Sequence record: ON470580 | Source: Escherichia phage vB_EcoM-606R7 | DNA: 38,458 nt | Direction: 5' to 3' (one strand) | In this document: in pieces, positions 16,689-38,458 of the stretch | How positions within the stretch are numbered: the stretch's first letter is position 1 | Layout of the letters: each line of letters opens with the position of its first letter | Made by a program: the position numbers and the translations under genes | Notes under the pieces: generated by a model | Seen by the model: only the letters and a program-made list of their open reading frames with translations | What the model was told of the DNA's origin: nothing | Databases searched by the model: none

Positions 16689-16763
<75 letters not shown>

Positions 16764-16766
16764 ATA

Positions 16767-16842
<76 letters not shown>

Positions 16843-16844
16843 AC

Positions 16845-16921
16845 TGGACCGCCACCGGGGACTCGAACCTCGCACACTCAACTTAAAGGGTTGACGCTCT
16901 TTCCTGATGAGCTAGTGGCGG
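16845..16921 (-). tRNA. tRNA gene with an atypical anticodon loop (CCUUUAA; best guess anticodon UUU, Lys)
   Basis: Sits in the array with 2-nt spacers. Acceptor CCGCCAC/GTGGCGG (C1-G72), TAGCTCA D-arm start, T-loop TTCGAGT, CCA encoded; C at position 33 and one T-stem mismatch. Confidence 0.5.
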
Positions 16922-16922
16922 T

Positions 16923-16998
16923 TGGTGGCCCTTGCTGGATTTGAACCAGCGACCTGGCGATTATGAGTCGCTCGCTCTCACCACTGAGCTAAAGGGCC
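16923..16998 (-). tRNA. tRNA-Ile2-like (gene anticodon CAT; ileX/ileZ type, alternatively elongator Met)
   Basis: GGCCCTTTAGCTCAGTGGT...CGACTCATAATCGCC...GGTTCAAATCCAGCAAGGGCCACCA resembles recalled E. coli ileX. Confidence 0.75.
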
Positions 16999-20354: not shown

Positions 20355-20510
20355 TTACTCCTCAGGTTCGTAAGCTGTGAAGACAGCGACCTCCGTCTGG
20401 CCGGTTCGGATTCGTACCTCGCAGAGGTCTTTCCTCGTTACCAGTGCCGTCACTATGACGGTTAAACAGATGACGATCAGGGCGATTAGCATCGCCTTTT
20501 GCTGCTTCAT
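20355..20510 (-). CDS. hok: Hok/Gef-family type I toxin (HokD/RelF-like)
   Basis: 51-aa sequence MKQQKAMLIALIVICLTVIVTALVTRKDLCEVRIRTGQTEVAVFTAYEPEE matches recalled HokD; long untranslated leader upstream (20511-20800). Confidence 0.85.
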   Translation of the reverse strand: MKQQKAMLIALIVICLTVIVTALVTRKDLCEVRIRTGQTEVAVFTAYEPEE

Positions 20511-20800
20511 AGCCTGCTTCTCCTTGCCTTTCGGCACGTAAGAGGCTAACCTAGATTTGCCGTTCATAGATTGAGCCTCAGATTAATGTTAAGCGTCTTG
20601 CAGGACGCGTAATGTTAACTGGGGCTTTTCTCTACCTGCCGTTGGTGTTCATGCCCGAGGCAGATAGCCTCAAGCACCCGCAGCAATTCTACTTAACTCT
20701 CCTTTTCCCGCAAACCGTTTTTACCCCCAGCGGCAAATCGAATACACCACCAGCGCCACCGCCATCGCAATTCCTACCGTTGTGAATGCTTCAGGCCAAG

Positions 20801-22828: not shown

Positions 22829-23083
22829 TTACATCATCTGCCAGTCTGGTTTCTCTTTTCNNNNNNNNNNNNNNNNNNNNNNNNNNNNNNNNNNNNNNNN
22901 NNNNNNNNNNNNNNNNNNNNCTCTTTCCGATGGCTCATAAAGAAAATTAACCTGATTACGTGGGTCATCCTCTTTTACCGGAAATAAAACGATATTGCTT
23001 AACTCATCTTCTGGTTTTATTTCCATGCTCTTCTCCTTTGATGTGAATGCCAGCGGTAATTGAAGCCTGATAGCTAATTTCAT
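22829..23083 (-). CDS. Hypothetical protein (interrupted by an N-run)
   Basis: ORF spans the N-run; only its N-terminal part is reliable. Confidence 0.3.
   Translation of the reverse strand: MKLAIRLQLPLAFTSKEKSMEIKPEDELSNIVLFPVKEDDPRNQVNFLYEPSERXXXXXXXXXXXXXXXXXXXXXKEKPDWQMM
22861..22920. other. Assembly gap (60 N)
   Basis: Run of n characters. Confidence 0.99.
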
Positions 23084-27230: not shown

Positions 27231-27288
27231 TTTCTGGTGACGTTTGGCGGTATCAGTTTTACTCCGTGACTGCTCTGCCGCCATTTTT
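27231..27288 (+). ncRNA. dicF: DicF-like small RNA (cell-division inhibitor)
   Basis: TTTCTGGTGACGTTTGGCGGTATCAGTTTTACTCCGTGACTGCTCTGCCGCC followed by ATTTTT matches the DicF sequence as I recall it; GGCGG...CCGCC terminator stem; sits between ydfC and dicB. Confidence 0.6.
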
Positions 27289-27924: not shown

Positions 27925-30368
27925 ATGAGCACTGATAAAGAAGAATTTGCACTATATTGCGAAGCAAAAAATGACAAAGTAAGAAAACGCCTGGGAATTA
28001 AAGGTGGTTTTTACTGGACTACAGCAAAAAAATTATCTGTTGCAATCTCCCGCTGCATTACCGCAATGGATGACAACGATTATGATGAAGACGACTTTAA
28101 AAAACCCGTCCGCGTCAATTTGCCCGTTGTTGACGACCTTCCGCCAGAAGGCGTGTTTGATACTGAATTCTGCAACCGCTATGAAAAAGGCGGGAAAGAT
28201 GGCATCACAATGACATTTATCGGCCCTTCCCCCTCTGTTCAGGACAAACCAGCCAGCACTGACAATACCAACATCAACGGCGAAGACATGACTGAGATTG
28301 AGGAGAGCATGCTTCTGCCTGTCTCCGGTCAGGAACTGCCCATTCGTTGGCTTGCTCAACACGGCAGCGAAAAACCAGTAACGCACGTTTCACGCGACGA
28401 ACTCCAGGCATTACACATTGCACGGGCTGAAGAACTACCGGCTGTTACTGCCCTGGCTATTTCGCATAAAACCAGTCTGCTCGACTCGCTGGAGATTCGC
28501 GACCTCCACAAACTGGTTCGTGACACTGACAAAGTTTTCCCTAATCCTGGTAATTCAGACCTGGGACTAATAACTGCTTTTTTCGAAGCATACCTGGACG
28601 CTGACTACACTGATCGGGGTCTGCTGACAAAAGAGTGGATGAAAGGAAATCGTGTTTCACGCATCACCCGCACGGCTTCCGGTGCTAATGCTGGCGGTGG
28701 GAACAAAACCGATCGCAATCCGAATTTAGTACACACCCTCGACACACTGGATGTGGAGATTGCAGCAGCCACACTTCCGATGGATTTTAATATTTATGAA
28801 ATTCCGGGCAGCGTTTATCGTCGCGCANNNNNNNNNNAGTCCTGAAAAAAGAAAGTCCGTTCAAAGAATGGTCCGCAGCACTTCGTGCAACCCCGGGTAT
28901 TCTGGACTATTCCCGCGCCGCTATTTTTGCACTTATCCGAAGTGCACACCCTGAATTTTATCACTACCCGGGACGCCTTCAGGGGTATATCAACGCCTAT
29001 TTGACGGAAACTGATCACGAGAACCCCAGCAAGGAAACTCTCACAGCTGCCCGGCATACGCCGGAAAAAGATATCCTGGAAGAAATTAACCGCGAGGTGG
29101 TTACTGAGCGTGAAACAGAAGAAGAAAAACCACAACCATCTGACGCAATGGCAGGTGAACAGGCAACAACTGAAACAATGGAACCGGATACAACTGAACA
29201 TTGCCAGAACGCGCAGTCGCTGGATGCTCAGTCGCAGGTGAGTTCCGCTAACCAAGTAAAAGTCACCGCTGACGAAGTAAACAAAATTATGCAGGCAGCC
29301 AATATCAGCCAGCCTGACGCCGATAAGTTACTTGCTGTATCGCGTGGTGAATTTGTTGAGGGGATTAGCGACCCTAATGATCCGAAATGGGTCAAGGGGA
29401 TCCAGACTCGCGATTCTGTGAACCAGAACCAGCATGAATCGGAACGGAACTACCAAAAAGCGGAACAAAACAGCCCAAATGCGTTACAAAACGAGCCAGA
29501 AACGAAACAATCCGAACCAGTAGCGCAACAGGAACCGGAAAAAGTCTGCACCGCCTGCGGTCAGAGCGGTGGCGGCAACTGCCCTGATTGTGGCGCGGTG
29601 ATGGGCGACGCAACATACCAGGAAACATTCGATGAAGAGAATCAAGTTGAAGTTCAGGAAAATGATCCGGAGGAAATGGAAGGCGCTGAACATCCACACA
29701 AGGAGAACCCTGGCGGCAATCAGCATCACGCCAGCGATAATAAAACTGGCGAGGCGACAGATCCCTTAATTAAGGTGAATGGTCATCATAAGCTCACATC
29801 CACCAGCAGAGCGGGGATTCATCTGATGATCGACCTTGAAACCATGGGAAAAAATCCCGATGCCCCGATTATCTCAATAGGCGCAATATTTTTCGATCCA
29901 CAAACCGGAGATATGGGACCGGAATTTAGCAAGACCATCGATCTGGATACTGCTGGCGGAGTCATTGATCGTGACGTCATTAAATGGTGGCTGAAGCAAT
30001 CACGTGAAGCGCAGTCTGCCATTATGACCGATGAAATCCCGTTAGATGATGCACTACTGCAATTGCGGGAATTTATCGACGAAAACTCCGGTGAATTTTT
30101 TGTTCAGGTCTGGGGTAATGGGGCCAACTTCGACAACGTGATTTTACGCCGTTCATACGAACGACAGGGTATCCCCTGCCCGTGGCGCTACTGCAACGAT
30201 CGCGATGTACGCACAATCGTTGAGCTGGGGAAAGCCATAGACTTCGATGCCAGAACTGCTATCCCATTCGAAGGTGAGCGCCATAATGCACTTGATGACG
30301 CTCGTTACCAGGCAAAATACGTTTCAGCTATCTGGCAAAAACTGATCCCGAGTCAGGCTGATTTTTAA
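27925..30368 (+). CDS. Exodeoxyribonuclease VIII-like protein (YdfE-like N-terminal part, DEDDh-type 3'-5' exonuclease C-terminal domain); spans a 10-N gap
   Basis: Reading frame stays open from 28839 to 30368, and the 27925-28827 ORF is open up to the gap, so one roughly 810-aa product is likely. C-terminus carries [15 protein letters not shown] and HNALDDA motifs. Reading frame across the gap is not verifiable. Confidence 0.55.
28828..28837. other. Assembly gap (10 N)
   Basis: Run of n characters. Confidence 0.99.
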
Positions 30369-30426
30369 TGTTCAACCCTAATTGCCGCTAACCGTATATA
30401 GTTAGCGGCGGTTATGAGATATAGCT

Positions 30427-30630
30427 ATGAGCAGCTTATTTTTAACCGAAGATGAATTGCTAATATTAACGGGCTGCAAATATGCAAGCCACCAGCGAAA
30501 ATGGTTAATGGAAAACGGGCTTCCGTTCTATACCAATCGTAGTGGCAAACCGATTGTCAGCCGGGAGCTATTTACCTGCAATAAAACTTTACCACCACGC
30601 GAGGTAGAGCCGAATTTTGGTGCGATCTGA
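30427..30630 (+). CDS. xis: Excisionase (Xis)
   Basis: 67-aa ORF immediately upstream of int with a one-base stop/start overlap. Confidence 0.6.
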   Translation: MSSLFLTEDELLILTGCKYASHQRKWLMENGLPFYTNRSGKPIVSRELFTCNKTLPPREVEPNFGAI

Positions 30631-31655
30631 TGGGAAGACGAAGGAAAAATCCTGAACACGAAAAATTACCTCCAAATGTATACCCAAATAAATATAGTTA
30701 TGTATGGAAACCAACATCCAGAGAATCTGTCACACTAACCGCCATCAAGGATGGTTTGGCTGCTTTATGGAAAAAGTATGAGGAAACTGTAAATAATCGC
30801 GATCGTGCAATGACATTCGGTCGCTTGTGGGAAAAATTCCTCGCCAGCGCCTATTACAGTGACCTTAGTCCAAGAACACAAAAAGATTATCTGCAACATC
30901 AAAAAAAGTTGCTTGCCGTATTCGGTAAGGTACCAGCGGATTCCATAAAACCAGAACACATCCGTCGATACATGGACAAAAGAGGGGAGCAGAGTAAAAC
31001 GCAAGCCAACCATGAAAAAAGCAGTATGTCCCGTGTTTACAGTTGGGGGTATGAGCGAGGGTACGTGAAGGCTAACCCATGTGCAGGTGTAAGTAAATTC
31101 AAGGCCAAAAACCGCGAACGATATGTAACCGACAAAGAATACCAGGCAGTATTAAGCGTTGCACCTCTTCCTGTTTTTATCGCAATGGAAATTGCCTATC
31201 TGTGTGCAGCGAGGGTTTCCGATGTGTTATCGCTGAAATGGGAACAGATTGGAAACGACGGGATATTCATCCAGCAAGGGAAAACCGGAAAAAAACAGAT
31301 AAAAGCATGGAGTCCACGATTACAGGCAGCGATCGAAAAAGCAAAACAGTTACCAAAATCTGCCTATGTGATCAGCAATCAATACGGCAACCGATATATG
31401 TACAAAGGCTTTAACGAAATGTGGGTAGAAGCAAGAAATCGCGCAGGCAAAATTTCAGGTATTTTAACCGACTTCACCTTTCATGATCTGAAGGCGAAAG
31501 GAATTTCAGACTATGAAGGAAGCAGCCGGGATAAGCAACTTTTCTCTGGTCACAAAACCGAAGGGCAAGTGCTAATCTATGACAGAAAGGTTAAAGTTTC
31601 ACCAACACTTGATGTCCCGTTACCTGAAAATATTCCAAGAAAATATTCCAAGTAA
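30630..31655 (+). CDS. int: Tyrosine integrase (lambda Int family)
   Basis: 341 aa; N-terminus MGRRRKNPEHEKLPPNVY parallels recalled lambda Int MGRRRSHERRDLPPNLY; C-terminal catalytic region with FHDLKAKG; ends 53 bp from tRNA-Ser. Confidence 0.85.
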   Translation: MGRRRKNPEHEKLPPNVYPNKYSYVWKPTSRESVTLTAIKDGLAALWKKYEETVNNRDRAMTFGRLWEKFLASAYYSDLSPRTQKDYLQHQKKLLAVFGKVPADSIKPEHIRRYMDKRGEQSKTQANHEKSSMSRVYSWGYERGYVKANPCAGVSKFKAKNRERYVTDKEYQAVLSVAPLPVFIAMEIAYLCAARVSDVLSLKWEQIGNDGIFIQQGKTGKKQIKAWSPRLQAAIEKAKQLPKSAYVISNQYGNRYMYKGFNEMWVEARNRAGKISGILTDFTFHDLKAKGISDYEGSSRDKQLFSGHKTEGQVLIYDRKVKVSPTLDVPLPENIPRKYSK

Positions 31656-31707
31656 TTCCAAGTGTGATTTTTGTCACTGACTTAATGATGTGTAAGTGAT
31701 TGAATTT

Positions 31708-31797
31708 TGGCGGAGAGAGGGGGATTTGAACCCCCGGTGGAGTTGCCCCCACTCCGGTTTTCGAGACCGGTCCGTTCAGCCGCTCCGGCATCTCTCC
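31708..31797 (-). tRNA. serU: tRNA-Ser (anticodon CGA), serU-like; probable prophage attachment target
   Basis: Hand-folded: GGAGAGATGCCGGAGCGGCTGAACGGACCGGTCTCGAAAACCGG... with long variable arm and CCA; 3' end faces the integrase gene. Confidence 0.8.
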
Positions 31798-31890
31798 GTT
31801 CAGATGGTTGCCATGATGCCAGGAAATTTGGCATTTTAACAGTCCCTGTCCGTGCAATTTTGTTCAAGTGACGAGTTTGCGAGCAAAACG

Positions 31891-32688
31891 ATGATTAAGT
31901 GGCCCTGGAAAGTACAAGAATCAGCACATCAAACTGCCCTTCCCTGGCAGGAAGCACTATCGATCCCCCTTTTAACGGGTCTGACGGAACAGGAACAAAG
32001 CAAATTAGTCACTCTTGCCGAACGTTTTTTACAGCAAAAGCGGCTTGTTCCTTTACAGGGCTTTGAACTGGATTCATTAAGAAGCTGCCGGATAGCACTT
32101 CTATTTTGCCTACCCGTTCTGGAGTTAGGACTGGAATGGCTGGATGGTTTTCATGAAGTCTTAATTTATCCTGCGCCATTTGTGGTCGATGATGAATGGG
32201 AAGACGATATCGGTCTGGTGCATAACCAACGTATTGTTCAGTCAGGTCAGAGCTGGCAGCAAGGGCCTATCGTTTTGAACTGGTTGGATATACAAGATTC
32301 TTTTGATGCATCTGGTTTTAACCTGATTATTCATGAAGTCGCTCATAAGCTGGACACCCGTAACGGCGATCGCGCCAGCGGAGTTCCCTTTATTTCGTTG
32401 CGTGAGGTTGCTGGCTGGGAACACGATCTTCATGCTGCAATGAACAACATTCAGGAAGAAATCGAATTAGTTGGTGAGAATGCAGCGAGCATTGATGCTT
32501 ATGCTGCCAGTGATCCTGCTGAATGTTTTGCCGTACTTTCTGAATATTTCTTTAGCGCCCCAGAACTTTTTGCTCCTCGTTTCCCTTCATTGTGGCAACG
32601 TTTCTGTCAATTTTATCAACAAGATCCTTTGCAGAGACTGCATCACGCTAATGATACAGACTCGTTTTCGGCGACGAATGTTCATTAA
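31891..32688 (+). CDS. mtfA: Mlc titration factor A (MtfA/YeeI), chromosomal
   Basis: Starts [28 protein letters not shown] and contains the metalloprotease-like HEVAHKLD motif; matches recalled MtfA. Confidence 0.85.
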
Positions 32689-32788
32689 TTAACAACTTTG
32701 CAGATTAATTAACCAATTGAAATGGCTTATGAAATTTAGTGTTGACAGACAAGGTACCGCTAAGTAATATGCGCTCCGTTCACACGAT

Positions 32789-32864
32789 TCCTCTGTAGTT
32801 CAGTCGGTAGAACGGCGGACTGTTAATCCGTATGTCACTGGTTCGAGTCCAGTCAGAGGAGCCA
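32789..32864 (+). tRNA. asnT: tRNA-Asn (anticodon GUU), asnT-like; HPI attachment site
   Basis: TCCTCTGTAGTTCAGTCGGTAGAACGGCGGACTGTTAATCCGTATGTCACTGGTTCGAGTCCAGTCAGAGGAGCCA read directly. Confidence 0.9.
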
Positions 32865-33025
32865 ATTTTCTGTTTTCATGCATCCTTGCAAATCTTTATC
32901 TGATGTTGATTCAACAGGTTAGTGTGAAAACTCTTCTCGGTGCATTTTGATTTTACCCTACGCATCGGGAAAAATTGGTGGTCAAATCTGGGATCAGGTT
33001 AGTTCGATAATGGAGTGACCCCCAT

Positions 33026-33941
33026 ATGTTCCTTACCGACGCAAAAATCCGCACCCTCAAGCCTTCTGATAAACCCTTTAAAGTCTCCGATTCTCACGGT
33101 CTGTATCTGCTGGTCAAGCCGGGTGGCTCCCGCCACTGGTATCTCAAAGCTGGAGGTTGCGTCCCGCACACGGCAGCACCTGAGTAACATAATGCGCCAT
33201 GCGGTCCATCAGGAGTTAATCGATACGAACCCTGCAGCAAACCTTGGCGGCGTGACCACACCTCCTGTCAGACGGCACTATCCTGCCCTGCCGCTGGAGC
33301 GGCTGCCTGAACTGCTTGAACGTATTGGGGCATATCATCAGGGCCGTGAACTGACCCGGCATGCCGTTCTGCTGATGCTGCATGTGTTCATTCGCTCCAG
33401 TGAACTGCGTTTCGCCCGCTGATCAGAGATTGATTTCACAAACCGAGTCTGGACGATACCCGCGACGCGAGAACCCATTATTGGCGTGCGTTATTCCGGC
33501 CGCGGGGCAAAAATGCGAATGCCGCATATCGTCCCCCTCTCAGAACAGTCCATCGCCATTCTGAAACAGATTAAGGATATCACCGGTAATAATGAACTGA
33601 TCTTCCCCGGCGACCATAACCCGTATAAGCCAATGTGTGAAAACACGGTCAATAAGGCACTGCGGGTGATGGGTTACGACACGAAAAAGGATATCTGCGG
33701 TCACGGCTTCCGGGCAATGGCATGCAGTGCGCTGATGGAATCGGGTTTATGGGCAAAGGACGCAGTAGAACGCCAGATGAGTCATCAGGAGCGCAATACC
33801 GTGCGCATGGCTTATATTCATAAGGCAGAGCACCTAGAAGCCCGCAAAGCGATGATGCAGTGGTGGTCGGATTATCTGGAAGCATGCCGAGAATCTTATG
33901 CACCGCCTTATACAATTGGTAAAAATAAGTTTATCCCATAG
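33026..33941 (+). pseudogene. int: HPI P4-like integrase, inactivated (internal deletion with frameshift plus an in-frame TGA at 33420-33422)
   Basis: N-terminus MFLTDAKIRTLKPSDKPFKVSDSHGLYLLVKPGGSRHWYLK stops after 51 codons; the integrase reading continues in another frame (LEVASRTRQHLSNIMRHAVHQ...) to a TGA, then resumes in frame (SEIDFTNRVWTIP... to the end). Confidence 0.8.
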
Positions 33942-34134
33942 TATACTAACGAATCCCTCACTCTGGCAAATTACCACCACCTCCACAGGAGGTGGTTCTA
34001 TATAGACTTTTATCAACTTCATGACGAAAAACACCTATTTTATCCCAAAAGAAGACAATAGAGTCACAGAGGAATCAAAGAGCGACTCAATTGTCTTTGG
34101 ACAGTCTGGTTGTGAGGTTAGAAAACAGTTACTC

Positions 34135-35439
34135 CTACACCATTAAATAGGGCGCAATGCTCGCTAATTTCTCCCGGGTTTCTGTCAGTTCGCGTTCCGG
34201 CGTAGATTGCGCGATGATTCCCGCCCCCGCCTGTATCCAGCAGCGCTGGCTATCCTGAAATACGGAACGCAGAACTAGCGCCGCATCAAAGCGCGTATCG
34301 TCCAGCAGCAGGATTGCGCCGGAATAAAGCTCTCGCGGCGTCTTCTCAATTTGCATAATCGCGTTCAGAGCAGCATTTTTAGGGATACCTGAGGCGGTAA
34401 TCGACGGAAACAGCACGGTAAACGCATCCCAGGCATCCTTGTTTTCCGAAAGCTGACCGCTCACGCCAGACCCCAGATGCTGAACGCTGCCGCGCTGGCG
34501 AACCGACATTAAATCTTCAACCACCACGCTGCCCGGCTGGCAAACAGCCTCCAGTTCAGCAATAGCTTCTTTGACAGAAAGGATATGCTCAAGCACCTCT
34601 TTACTGTCGTGCAGCAGTTCTGCCTCTTTCGCCTTATTATGCTCCGGGTTTCCCATGCGATCGCGGGTGCCCGCAAGCGGTTCAGTGACCACTTTATTGC
34701 CCATCACTGACATCACCAGTTCCGGGCTAAAGCCCAGCGCTTCGCGTCCTTCCTGACGGAACATAAACGAGCGCACAGGCGTGTTTGCCTGCCGCCCGTA
34801 TAACAGCGTGGCGGGCATATCAATCCGCGATGGCAGGGGAATGGCGCGCGAGACAATCACTTTGACATACTCGCCACGGCGGATCTCCGCAACGGCGCGC
34901 GCAACCTGTTGTTTATATGCCTCACCATTGAGGGCGGTATCCACCGCCAGTGGTGCGTTCTGCGTCGTTGTACCGGCCTCTTTTACCCACTCGCACAAAC
35001 GTCGGCACCCGTCGGCGGAGTCCGCATAAACGGTGACATTTCCCTTTTCAAAAATAAGTTCTTCACGGGGAACGGTTAACGTCAGCAGCGGCCACTCCCC
35101 GGCGTTAAAGGCAATCCCCCGCGCATGCGCCGCAAAGTTGAACCCAACCTGTCCATATACCCGACGTCCTTTCACCTGAGGATGCGCCATAAAACGACGC
35201 GCGCAGTCGGCAATGGAATCCACCGCCCATTTTTGCTCCCCGGCATCATCAATAAATGTCGCCTGCGTTCCGTCGGCATTAATGTGCAGCCGTGCCTGGC
35301 ACCCTTTGCCTAAATACCAACAGGGTTGACGCTCATAGACATAACACTCTTCTTCTGCGAACTGGCGTAAAACGCCAGAAATCGTCGGTAGCCATTGTTC
35401 CTCTGGTAACGCCAGATGTAGAAATTCACTGATTTTCAT
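34135..35439 (-). CDS. ybtS: Salicylate synthase YbtS (Irp9)
   Basis: 434-aa MKISEFLHLALPEEQWLPT... chorismate-utilising enzyme fold; recalled as YbtS; position next to ybtX. Confidence 0.85.
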   Translation of the reverse strand: MKISEFLHLALPEEQWLPTISGVLRQFAEEECYVYERQPCWYLGKGCQARLHINADGTQATFIDDAGEQKWAVDSIADCARRFMAHPQVKGRRVYGQVGFNFAAHARGIAFNAGEWPLLTLTVPREELIFEKGNVTVYADSADGCRRLCEWVKEAGTTTQNAPLAVDTALNGEAYKQQVARAVAEIRRGEYVKVIVSRAIPLPSRIDMPATLLYGRQANTPVRSFMFRQEGREALGFSPELVMSVMGNKVVTEPLAGTRDRMGNPEHNKAKEAELLHDSKEVLEHILSVKEAIAELEAVCQPGSVVVEDLMSVRQRGSVQHLGSGVSGQLSENKDAWDAFTVLFPSITASGIPKNAALNAIMQIEKTPRELYSGAILLLDDTRFDAALVLRSVFQDSQRCWIQAGAGIIAQSTPERELTETREKLASIAPYLMV

Positions 35440-35466
35440 CCCTTACCTCTCTGTGTTATTCCCGGA

Positions 35467-36747
35467 TCAATCAATTGCGCTTGTCATCAGTTCTCTTGCC
35501 GAATGCAGCCGGATATAAGCAACCCACGCCGCCAGCAACGTGAATGCCCCGGCAAACAGGAAGCAGGCCGCATAGCCAAAATGTTGAGCAACAACGCCAC
35601 CGATAACGCCTGCCAGAATGGCGATTGCCGCATCAGTACATTGAAAGAGGGTGAAGTCGACACCGGCCTGCAAAGGCGATGAAAGCGACATCAGCGTGGC
35701 GTAAAGACAGACCAGCGCGCAGGCCAGCGAAATGGACTGGACAATGACCAGACACTGGAGAATCTGCAGCAGCAGATGACCCGGCGCCATCATGAGCGTC
35801 ATCACCACCGCCAGCAGCGCGATCCCCTGGACGCCATAAGCCGTCAACAGCGCTCTGCCGGGTGAGGTGTATTTCATCAGCAATCCGCCGGCCAGCGTTC
35901 CTGCTATGCCCGCTGCAATATTGCCGCCGCTGAACAACGCGCCCAATGCGGACATGCTCAACCCATGATCCAACAACAGCGGTGCCAGAAGAGGCAGCAC
36001 AAACCGCATGCCTGAATTCAGCATCAATACCAGCAGTAAGCCCAGGCGCGCCTGCTTCCTCCTTAGCGCATAACCTAACGCCGGAACATGCAGGATAGTC
36101 GCTGTTCGCGTCGGCTCCGTAATGCGCCACAGCGGGAGTGACAGCGCCATAATCAGCACCGCCATCATCAGCATGGCGACAGGCCAGCCGGATGCCGCCG
36201 ACAGCATCAGGAACACCCCGCCGCCGCACATCATTCCCAGATAGCTGCCGCCGACCTGCACGCTGTTTCCCCAGCCGTAACCCGTGCGGGTCAGTTGATC
36301 GACACAAAAGCCGTCGCTGGCGATATCAATGGTGGAGGCGACCGTGCCTGCCACCATAAACAGAACAAATAACGCGACGATTTGCGTATCGGGGAATCCC
36401 CCTTCTCGCCTAAACCAGCCAATCGCTGCGGCAATAGTCAGGATCGCCGCTAGCGCGACCTGACCACGCAGGATTAACATGCGGGAACGGCGTTCCTGGC
36501 TACCGGGCGGAAGCCGCCAGCGCTCGATCCACGGCGCCCAAATAAACTTCAGCGCCCAGGGCAGCATAAACAGGGTTGTCGCACCGGCAAGCGCCAGCGA
36601 ACCGCCAGCAGCGCGCACCAGCGCGGGTAAGGACTGCATAGACAGCGCCGATACCAGACTCTGCGTCACATAGACGCCGGCAATAGCAAAAATCACCCGT
36701 CCGGTCGTCAACGTCGGCGGTTTCACATTCGACTGAACATCACTCAT
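35467..36747 (-). CDS. ybtX: MFS transporter YbtX
   Basis: Multi-helix hydrophobic ORF; start taken at MSDVQSNVKPP, whose ATG overlaps the ybtQ stop (ATGAGTGA). Confidence 0.75.
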   Translation of the reverse strand: MSDVQSNVKPPTLTTGRVIFAIAGVYVTQSLVSALSMQSLPALVRAAGGSLALAGATTLFMLPWALKFIWAPWIERWRLPPGSQERRSRMLILRGQVALAAILTIAAAIGWFRREGGFPDTQIVALFVLFMVAGTVASTIDIASDGFCVDQLTRTGYGWGNSVQVGGSYLGMMCGGGVFLMLSAASGWPVAMLMMAVLIMALSLPLWRITEPTRTATILHVPALGYALRRKQARLGLLLVLMLNSGMRFVLPLLAPLLLDHGLSMSALGALFSGGNIAAGIAGTLAGGLLMKYTSPGRALLTAYGVQGIALLAVVMTLMMAPGHLLLQILQCLVIVQSISLACALVCLYATLMSLSSPLQAGVDFTLFQCTDAAIAILAGVIGGVVAQHFGYAACFLFAGAFTLLAAWVAYIRLHSARELMTSAID

Positions 36748-38458
36748 GCACCCACTCTCCAGACGCGGAAACCCCGTCGTCGCGCCACACGCGCGCGGCC
36801 ATTTGCGCCTGCCACAGCGCCTGATAACGCCCATGATGTGAGAGCAATTGCGCATGAGTACCCTGCTCAACCACCTGTCCCTCTTCCATCACCAGAATGT
36901 TTCCGGCCCCGGCGATGGTGGATAAACGGTGAGCGATGATAATCACCGTCCGGTTGTAAACCAGGTTATCGATCGCTTTTTGCACCGCCAGCTCGCTTTC
37001 AATATCCAGCGCGGCAGTCGGTTCATCGAGAATGACGACTGGCGCGTTTTTCAATAACGCTCTGGCAATGGAAATCCGCTGGCGCTCGCCGCCCGATAGC
37101 TGGCCGCCCATCTCTCCCATTGGCGTCAGCCAGCCTTGCGGAAGACGGGAAATAAACTCAAGGCACTGCGCCGCGCGGGCGGCCTCTTCTACCTCCTGCC
37201 GCGTCGCCTGTGGGCGCGCGATACGGATATTCGCCAGCAGCGTGTCATCAAACAGCCAGACATCCTGGAAAACAACAGAAATCAGGCTATTGAGCTGTTC
37301 CGGCGTCAGGCGGCGAATATCGACGCCGCCAATAGAAATCTGCCCTTGCTGCGGATCGGCATAGCGCATTAACAGTTTGGTGACGGTAGTTTTGCCTGCG
37401 CCGGAGGCACCCACCAGCGCGCTCATACTGGCTGCCGGGAACGTCAAAGAAACATGATTAAGCGCGTGGCCGTCGCCTTCTTCGTAGCGATAGCTGACGT
37501 TGTCAAAGCGGATATCGTAACGTTCCGGCATCTCGCTTTGCTCTGCGACGGGAAGCGGTGCTATCGCCATAAACTGCTCAATCCGTTGCAGGGCGCTGGC
37601 GATCAGTTCCACAACCGAGGTGTAGCTGATAAACATCGCCATCGGTTCTGCGAAGCGCATAATCATCGCGACGGCGGCAATCAAAAAGGCGAGGTTCAGA
37701 GTGCCCGTCACTACCCAGACGATCCCGGATAACACCACCACCTGTAGGCCCAACTCCACGACGCTGGCGATCAGCATCGTCGCGCCAGCGCCCTGACGGT
37801 GAGTGCGGGTCTGTAAGTTTTCCAGCGCATTGAAATGCGCCAGCAGCGCCCGGCTTTTATCGGCATCGCTGCCGCAGGTGCGCAATACCATCATCCCCTG
37901 AGCAAATTCAACGATATCGCCGCTCAGACGCTGGTGCGCTTCCCCCAGCGTCTGCATTTGTCGCCGCATCGCCGGGCGGCGCCAGTAATAAAACGGCACC
38001 AGCAGAGGGAAGATCAGCAACATCACCAGCCCCAGCCGCCAGTCTATCCACAATGTCGCCAGCGACGCCGTCAGCGGCGTGACAATGGTGAGCAGCAAAA
38101 TATTGGCTATCGCAATAACATAATTGAGGTTTTCATCCACGCTGCCCAGCAGCAAGGCGTTCATTTCACCCGCCCTGCCGCGCTGGAGCTTCTCCAGCGG
38201 CACGCGGCGTAACTGCTCGCCAAGTCGCAGGCGCAACTCATGGGTGGCCTGCGCCAGATGACCACGGTATTCAAAGCCCAGGCCATACCAGCGTAGCACC
38301 AGCGTCACAATTGCGGCGACGCTGAAGGCCATAGCCCAGTTAAGAAGTTGCGGCGCGTCTCCCCGTAACAGCGCATCAATGATCGGATAAAGACAGGCAA
38401 AGGCGATCCCCTGCATGAATGCCGCCAGCAACAGCGCCAGCATACTGCGTCGCAGCAT
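36740..38458 (-). CDS. ybtQ: ABC transporter permease-ATPase fusion YbtQ (5' end beyond window edge)
   Basis: Transmembrane domain followed by Walker A GASGAGKTT, signature LSGGERQR and Walker B VILDEPT; ORF runs to the window edge. Confidence 0.8.
   Translation of the reverse strand: MLRRSMLALLLAAFMQGIAFACLYPIIDALLRGDAPQLLNWAMAFSVAAIVTLVLRWYGLGFEYRGHLAQATHELRLRLGEQLRRVPLEKLQRGRAGEMNALLLGSVDENLNYVIAIANILLLTIVTPLTASLATLWIDWRLGLVMLLIFPLLVPFYYWRRPAMRRQMQTLGEAHQRLSGDIVEFAQGMMVLRTCGSDADKSRALLAHFNALENLQTRTHRQGAGATMLIASVVELGLQVVVLSGIVWVVTGTLNLAFLIAAVAMIMRFAEPMAMFISYTSVVELIASALQRIEQFMAIAPLPVAEQSEMPERYDIRFDNVSYRYEEGDGHALNHVSLTFPAASMSALVGASGAGKTTVTKLLMRYADPQQGQISIGGVDIRRLTPEQLNSLISVVFQDVWLFDDTLLANIRIARPQATRQEVEEAARAAQCLEFISRLPQGWLTPMGEMGGQLSGGERQRISIARALLKNAPVVILDEPTAALDIESELAVQKAIDNLVYNRTVIIIAHRLSTIAGAGNILVMEEGQVVEQGTHAQLLSHHGRYQALWQAQMAARVWRDDGVSASGEWVHE

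Follow-up and report, generated by a model that had tools for sequence, protein, structure and literature searches.

The question raised by this locus is whether either of two horizontally acquired elements, placed side by side at neighbouring tRNA genes, can still leave the chromosome. The window (the whole stretch of DNA analysed, 38,458 nt, record ON470580) is an ordinary, previously documented serU-mtfA-asnT region of the E. coli chromosome that carries two such elements, a lambdoid prophage and the high-pathogenicity island (HPI) for yersiniabactin. As read from the sequence, it very probably combines a serU prophage, whose int-xis pair is intact, with an immobile HPI at asnT, whose integrase gene intB has decayed stepwise.

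From left to right the order is xis and int of the lambdoid prophage, serU, mtfA, asnT, the intB remnant and ybtS/X/Q/P. The tRNA-Ser(CGA) gene serU (31708–31797, minus strand; ARAGORN, Rfam, RefSeq annotation) and the tRNA-Asn(GTT) gene asnT (32789–32864, plus strand; ARAGORN, Rfam; promoter-like site at 32742–32770) were found where the preliminary description had placed them, and its tandem islands at serU and asnT with mtfA alone between them were borne out by tRNA calls, open reading frames and annotation; mtfA (DgsA anti-repressor), the sole gene between both tRNA genes, occupies 31891–32688 on the plus strand (RefSeq annotation of the matching stretch; open frame). The prophage and the HPI are spaced by ~1–1.6 kb. 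Beyond intB, ybtS, ybtX, ybtQ and the start of ybtP (yersiniabactin genes; 34135–38458, minus strand) were assigned by identity to the proxy genome TUM1586, which is 100% identical to window positions 32228–38458 and in which the yersiniabactin genes are annotated as intact; judged by this identity, the cargo genes are intact. Coverage of at least 80% of the 3.8-kb stretch was found in 488 of 5426 complete E. coli genomes. Lit. data: PAI-serU adjoining HPI-asnT is tabulated for UPEC 536 and CFT073 (PMC7545054), i.e., the same adjacent pair of tRNA integration sites is used; the serU occupant there is a 22-kb TcpC island, whereas that of the window is a ~39-kb lambdoid prophage.

The intB pseudogene (HPI integrase; 33026–33941, plus strand) was delimited by alignment to an intact allele, translations, Pfam fragments and RefSeq, in which it is labelled 'frameshifted; internal stop'. 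The intact 420-aa E. coli allele of strain EC21GDE043 was taken as the reference, and alignment to it returned both lesions that had been suspected. The loss of 'roughly 345 bp' with a change of frame was accurately seen and amounts to exactly 347 bp (CDS nt 124–470; junction at 33148–33149, plus strand); codons 42–157 are affected, the frame is shifted, and microhomology is absent at the junction. The in-frame TGA was confirmed as TGG>TGA (W248*) at 33420–33422 on the plus strand, in the conserved ELRFARWSEID motif (alignment, translation). The remnant thus consists of 41 N-terminal codons, 12 out-of-frame codons and a stop (33185–33187), followed by a middle fragment in the original frame and a C-terminal fragment; Pfam returned Arm-DNA-bind_3, Phage_int_M and Phage_integrase fragments in the correct order. 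Over 1141 bp the gene is otherwise identical to the EC21GDE043 allele, bar two substitutions upstream of the ATG, and the protein, the two lesions aside, is identical to the intact 420-aa form. Other Enterobacterales as a rule carry a full-length intB of ~411–420 aa; the 80 matches listed included no intB locus of Y. pestis or Y. pseudotuberculosis, but did include full-length alleles of Klebsiella (98%) and Raoultella (99%).

The left copy of the 17-bp HPI attachment repeat, CCAGTCAGAGGAGCCAA, lies at the asnT 3' end (32849–32865, plus strand; sequence search) and occurs once in the window; islands at asn tRNA genes have been described with this 17-mer (PMC2801613). The marks of an E. coli-type HPI are present in the window: insertion at the 3' end of asnT with CCAGTCAGAGGAGCCAA, intB directly downstream and ybtS-X-Q-P next, the arrangement of the common E. 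coli HPI (Schubert et al. 2009, PMC2606025), in which intB likewise stands beside the tRNA gene and is followed by ybtS-ybtX-ybtQ-ybtP. The right end of the island lies beyond the window and was read from TUM1586 and the literature. The far-end search for the 17-bp repeat was run in this proxy, and no copy (≤3 mismatches; 43 kb examined) was found beyond fyuA; the matches in the 43 kb were three asn tRNA genes and one chance match with three mismatches inside irp1. Beyond the HPI, the backbone of TUM1586 picks up inside yeeJ, with ~0.58 kb of backbone missing. The common E. coli HPI is described in the same terms: it has lost its right-hand (fyuA-side) direct repeat and is fixed at asnT (PMC2606025; PMC8209727), and, as in TUM1586, the 5' part of yeeJ is deleted (PMC2606025). 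This island type is immobile mainly because the fyuA-side repeat is deleted, which holds with an intact intB too; most common-type HPIs have a full-length intB (1999 of ~2335 genomes), whereas that of the window has a deletion and a nonsense codon. The right-hand repeat being missing, the decay of the integrase is therefore secondary, in an already immobile island. The statement that the HPI is probably fixed in the chromosome thus stands, on the ground of the deleted fyuA-side repeat (PMC2606025; PMC8209727); integrase decay, which the preliminary description gave as the cause, is an incomplete account.

The prophage tyrosine integrase gene int (30630–31655, plus strand; open reading frame, translation, Pfam) encodes 341 aa ending ...PENIPRKYSK and stops 52 bp from the tRNA-Ser 3' end; Phage_integrase and Phage_int_M were identified by Pfam. 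The protein was aligned with lambda Int over residues 1–313 (E 8e-13). The box I Arg (AARVSD), a Lys (QQGKTGKK) and H-x-x-K (FHDLKAKG) fall in high-confidence columns; the alignment is of low confidence where it ends, at GHK, and does not reach the Tyr (LIYDRK), so that the assignment of both is inferred. The position of lambda Int Arg311 is held by Lys (FHDLKAKG), which is kept in 18 of 18 homologues inspected, a conservation that makes it a trait of the family and no sign of decay; the activity of the integrase is assumed from the same family-wide conservation. An excisionase-family gene (xis; 67 aa; 30427–30630, plus strand) with matches to Pfam DUF4224 (E 1.7e-15) and PHROG phrog_1266 'excisionase' (E 4e-21) stands directly before int, its stop overlapping the int start. 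The int-proximal att block (31693–31769, minus strand) covers the last 62 nt of tRNA-Ser, beginning at the anticodon stem, and ~15 bp downstream; in TUM1586 a second copy (91% over 78 bp) lies where the same prophage ends distally. The prophage (~39 kb, lambdoid) has an HK97-type head, DicB/DicF, hok/sok and a tRNA cluster. Its closest match among complete RefSeq E. coli genomes reached ~97% (query: window positions 1–25000), and TUM1586 was used as the proxy because no complete RefSeq E. coli genome exceeded this value over the prophage. Since int, the excisionase-family gene and the int-proximal att block are intact, excision of the serU prophage, the distal end of which lies beyond the window, is plausible.

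That the 347-bp gap and the TGA could be sequencing or assembly artefacts, an outcome for which the preliminary description had allowed, was examined in 5426 complete E. coli genomes with 50-mers placed across the deletion junction and centred on the TGA. Three N runs do occur elsewhere in the window, one of which falsely splits a prophage exonuclease gene; positions 30630–33941, however, contain none, the junction 50-mer was found in 334 independent genomes of the 5426 and the TGA-centred 50-mer in 36. The recurrence of the same junction and the same TGA in other genomes is the reason for not regarding the lesions as artefacts, and sequencing errors are thereby refuted. The deletion had, moreover, been detected by PCR and Sanger sequencing in 2010: Paauw et al. 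(PMC2801613) described four isolates with an intB without bp 124–470, with deletion coordinates identical to those of the window (CDS nt 124–470, 347 bp), whereas W248* is additional in the window, the stop being unmentioned in the paper. An artefact is thus a practically negligible possibility. The intB 3' segment was found in 2335 of the 5426 genomes and the 347-bp segment in 1999; the deletion is carried by ~14% and the extra stop by ~1.5% of intB-bearing complete genomes. Of the 36 TGA genomes, at least 31 have the deletion as well, both lesions being spanned by a single 323-bp match of 100% identity; this is largely consistent with a TGA allele nested in the deletion allele, a nesting shown for 31 of the 36. 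The junction gave no match among genomes representing each bacterial species once.

Mobility of the two elements admits two further readings. A related P4-type integrase acting in trans (e.g., from the pks island or an ICE) might still mobilise the HPI: in other Enterobacterales, related intB-like integrases (93–95% identity) occur together at asn tRNA genes, and one integrase has excised neighbouring modules (Paauw et al., PMC2801613). The proxy TUM1586 is without the right-hand repeat, however, the HPI type is called immobile (PMC2606025; PMC8209727) and a second integrase was not seen in the window, which makes such mobilisation very improbable. Somewhat less remote, although still unlikely, is the reading that follows RefSeq, in which the prophage int is a frameshifted pseudogene and both elements are locked in place: TUM1586 and EC21GDE043 have the identical allele, which PGAP labels 'frameshifted', and a 344-aa allele ending ...SNSKCDFCH, with one 13-bp unit fewer, is annotated as intact in O157:H7 MB9-1. 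Against this, the 341-aa and 344-aa alleles differ solely by that one 13-bp unit, which lies at the very 3' end of the gene, at least 20 residues past the presumed catalytic Tyr; the two-unit allele is present in 1072 genomes and the one-unit allele in 45; and the KYSK end is common to most homologues at 60–89% identity, with a few variants or exceptions. The C-termini of the 18 homologues follow the pattern ...(K/E/G/A/R)YS(K/R), from which a few differ, and none of the 18 matches the end of the one-unit allele; a 341-aa E. albertii homologue with such an end is annotated by NCBI as intact. The 13-bp repeat as a disabling duplication was rejected on these C-termini, and the RefSeq reference itself appears to be a derived allele with a 13-bp deletion. 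The view that the prophage integrase is intact was accordingly upheld, by the 341-aa open frame and the family-typical KYSK end, despite the RefSeq flag.

For the combination of an intact prophage int-xis and an immobile HPI with a decayed intB, the following history is proposed; it starts from what was observed, namely both lesions, how often each occurs and the absence of the repeat from the proxy, and from this we infer the order of events and relaxed selection. The lambdoid prophage occupies the 3' portion of serU, its insertion beginning at the anticodon stem. The HPI at asnT would first have lost its fyuA-side 17-bp direct repeat, which would have left the integrase without a substrate and intB free to decay. 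In this lineage intB would then have lost 347 bp (nt 124–470), a deletion that shifted the frame and cost the protein most of its core-binding domain as well as the second half of its arm-binding domain; a sub-lineage would later have gained W248*. The yersiniabactin cargo genes have stayed intact. Little of this is new biology: that the serU and asnT islands adjoin, that the E. coli HPI is immobile and that intB can lack exactly these 347 bp are all already published. The locus is a textbook domesticated island, with its cargo retained and its mobility module decaying step by step. Both the deletion junction and the TGA can serve to mark lineages among HPI variants. The 'frameshifted' label that RefSeq gives the serU-prophage integrase appears to be an artefact of the choice of reference, and it could make surveys of prophage mobility undercount intact integrases.

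Three direct repeats of ATTCCAAG (31632–31662, plus strand; starts at 31632, 31645 and 31655), putative arm-type Int sites, overlap the last int codons and the stop. The motif occurs nowhere else in the 38.4-kb window; the proxy L003 has five copies, every one within ~130 bp of one of the two prophage ends, the distal end included. The repeats may perhaps serve as arm-type Int sites, in which case slippage between the two 13-bp units would at one stroke drop one site and rewrite the Int C-terminus; this proposal is tentative. If it is true, a native int allele is mislabelled as a pseudogene by RefSeq in roughly a thousand genomes; the one-unit allele (45 genomes) includes O157:H7. The arrangement resembles that of lambda in the three-domain integrase, in xis lying upstream of int, and in short motif repeats on both sides of the core (3 + 2), the int-proximal ones overlapping the int end. 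It differs in that the core of the window lies in a tRNA gene, from the anticodon stem to the 3' end, and in the Lys in place of the Arg311 equivalent; the lambda arm motif is unrelated to ATTCCAAG.

Two further observations concern the prophage. The split of the RecE-like exonuclease gene (27925–28845, 29001–30368) was considered as a sign of decay and rejected, a run of 10 Ns (28828–28837) replacing 8 bases there. When a phage collection was searched with the prophage integrase, the one record to match was vB_EcoS-689R5, which bears the label 'partial genome'; it was rejected as evidence of excision, as it includes serU, mtfA and asnT and ends exactly at the stop of the HPI integrase gene, and from these boundaries it looks like a chromosome excerpt bounded by the two integrases.

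The tRNA genes on either side of mtfA were located with ARAGORN: tRNA-Ser(CGA), serU, 31708-31797 (minus strand); tRNA-Asn(GTT), asnT, 32789-32864 (plus strand). Megablast of 30400-34200 gave a partial match in 5426/5426 complete E. coli genomes and covered 80% or more of the query in 488; the best was TUM1586 (99.8%), for which RefSeq gives the order DUF4224 gene, tyrosine recombinase, tRNA-Ser, mtfA, tRNA-Asn, second tyrosine recombinase (that of the HPI, the yersiniabactin high-pathogenicity island; labelled "frameshifted; internal stop"), ybtS, ybtX, ybtQ and ybtP. Left of serU the window is lambdoid prophage throughout (tail, head, terminase, lysis, Q, replication and dicB genes). The tRNA calls and the RefSeq order thus bear out the preliminary description, which had placed the prophage at the serU 3' end and the HPI at asnT with mtfA alone between them; in UPEC 536 and CFT073, PAI-serU directly adjoins HPI-asnT, as tabulated in a review (PMC7545054). 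That observation is confirmed and its interpretation supported with one correction of emphasis, and all central points are already in the literature and the RefSeq annotation; small new points are the intB allele frequencies, a stop that is nearly nested in the deletion, a likely mis-flagged serU-prophage integrase and candidate arm-type repeats.

The HPI integrase gene intB (remnant 33026-33941) was said to have lost about 345 bp with a frame change and to carry an in-frame TGA, and both lesions were recovered on alignment of 32860-34000 with the intact allele of EC21GDE043 (1263 bp, 420 aa): a single gap of 347 bp between 33148 and 33149 (CDS nt 124-470, codons 42-157), and a single coding substitution that turns Trp248 (TGG>TGA, 33420-33422; in the conserved ELRFARWSEID motif) into a stop. 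Two further substitutions lie 5' of the ATG, the remainder is identical, and the protein with both lesions repaired in silico is that of the intact allele; no microhomology was found at the deletion junction in this alignment. The deleted codons specify the latter half of the arm-binding domain (Pfam Arm-DNA-bind_3, residues 3-87) together with the larger part of the central domain (Phage_int_M, residues 98-191); in the shifted frame the ATG at 33026 leads into 12 foreign codons and a stop at 33185-33187.

These lesions are not sequencing errors, the 50-mer centred on the junction being found in 334/5426 complete E. coli genomes and that centred on the TGA in 36/5426; an allele lacking bp 124-470, exactly that of the window, has moreover been published (Paauw et al., PMC2801613). 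The undeleted allele, scored by the 347-bp segment itself, was present in 1999/5426, and the 323-bp segment spanning junction and TGA, in any allele, in 2335/5426; the deletion allele thus makes up ~14% of intB-bearing complete genomes, with STEC O26 and O103, porcine ETEC and human ESBL isolates among its carriers. Since 31 genomes matched the 323-bp stretch in one piece at 100%, the TGA appears to be nested largely, perhaps entirely, in the deletion lineage, as would be expected of a nonsense mutation that postdates the death of the gene.

The window stops inside ybtP, and the far HPI border was therefore read by proxy in TUM1586, to which 32228-38458 is 100% identical. The 17-mer CCAGTCAGAGGAGCCAA, searched in 43 kb of TUM1586 with up to 3 mismatches, was found only in the three asn tRNA genes and once, with 3 mismatches, within irp1 (taken as chance); this check for the 17-bp asn repeat at the far end yielded none beyond fyuA. 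Relative to the empty site of O157:H7 MB9-1, the backbone ends 4 bp past asnT and resumes within yeeJ, ~0.58 kb (intergenic DNA and the yeeJ 5' end) being missing at the right border. This agrees with the published E. coli border: in all HPI-positive ECOR strains, ECOR31 alone excepted, the island sits at asnT and has a unique deletion of its fyuA-side border (Schubert et al. 2009, PMC2606025). The proposal that the HPI is fixed therefore stands, with the emphasis moved: the main reason is the lost right repeat, not integrase decay. Since an island without this repeat is already immobile, the intB lesions would be a secondary event, immobility having plausibly relaxed selection on the gene. 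The HPI cargo genes in the window show no difference from copies that carry an intact annotation.

The prophage integrase (int, 30630-31655, 341 aa), described as looking intact, is labelled "frameshifted" by RefSeq PGAP (30630-31680), at first sight a contradiction. The RefSeq call ends at the stop of the 344-aa allele annotated intact in O157:H7 MB9-1, and what separates the two alleles is the copy number of a 13-bp unit, GAAAATATTCCAA: two in the window form, with the C-terminus ...PENIPRKYSK (1072 genomes), and one in the rarer O157 form, with the C-terminus ...PENIPSNSKCDFCH (45 genomes). Homologues of 60-89% identity (E. albertii, Salmonella, Siccibacter, others) are decisive; most end in ...(K/E/G/A/R)YS(K/R), as in the window, a few end otherwise and none has the one-unit end. 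These C-termini indicate that the 341-aa protein is the native form, in keeping with the original description, and the flag seems to stem from use of the rarer, 13-bp-shorter allele as reference. In O157:H7 PV15-279 (205-2568 of its locus, L007) the same integrase is split by IS1203 (IS3-family), which locks this prophage in another way.

In an alignment to lambda Int (residues 1-313, E 8e-13), prophage Int clearly shows the Arg of box I (AARVSD), the Lys (in QQGKTGKK) and the first His (FHDL); GHK lies at the low-confidence end of the alignment, and a candidate catalytic Tyr lies just past it in LIYDRK. Where lambda Int has the catalytic Arg311, prophage Int has Lys (FHDLKAKG, 31482-31505; H-x-x-K versus H-x-x-R); because this Lys was kept in 18/18 homologues inspected, it is a trait of the serU-prophage integrase family, not decay. 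The 67-aa gene upstream of int (30427-30630) matches excisionase families.

The int-proximal junction is the sole prophage junction inside the window. The distal end of the prophage (~39 kb in TUM1586) holds a partial tRNA-Ser copy of 62 nt that begins at the anticodon stem and ends with the 3' CCA (39654-39716 of the TUM1586 locus, L003). It differs from the matching part of the functional gene (31708-31769) by G>A and C>T, one on each strand of the variable-arm stem, which leaves the pairing intact. The window as a whole has 3 copies of the 8-mer ATTCCAAG, confined to 31632-31662, where they overlap the final codons and stop region of int; the 49-kb TUM1586 locus has 5 (567-597, 39527-39534, 39592-39599). 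All of them lie within ~130 bp of the prophage ends. From their position, these repeats are candidate arm-type Int binding sites in a lambda-like 3 + 2 layout; if so, the 13-bp repeat would be functional DNA and the one-unit allele would have lost a site. On this reading the needed parts are present at the int end of the window prophage, which may thus still be excisable, as proposed.

Four prophage tRNA genes (16689-16998, minus strand; CAT, Lys-TTT, Thr-TGT, Gly-TCC) form a cluster with the Q antiterminator gene on one side and the lysis genes on the other; ARAGORN assigns the CAT-anticodon tRNA to Met, RefSeq to Ile. Rfam matches in the prophage were sok antitoxin RNA beside hokD (20505-20679, minus strand) and DicF sRNA beside dicB (27232-27283, plus strand). 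The window contains three N runs (1054-1118, 22861-22920, 28828-28837), the last of 10 N in place of 8 bases, by which the RecE-like exonuclease gene (27925-30368) is artificially split into two ORFs. The phage-database record ON470583.1 ("Escherichia phage vB_EcoS-689R5, partial genome") has serU, mtfA, asnT and an undeleted HPI intB, and breaks off precisely at the stop of that gene; it looks like a stretch of chromosome excerpted between two integrases, not a virion genome.
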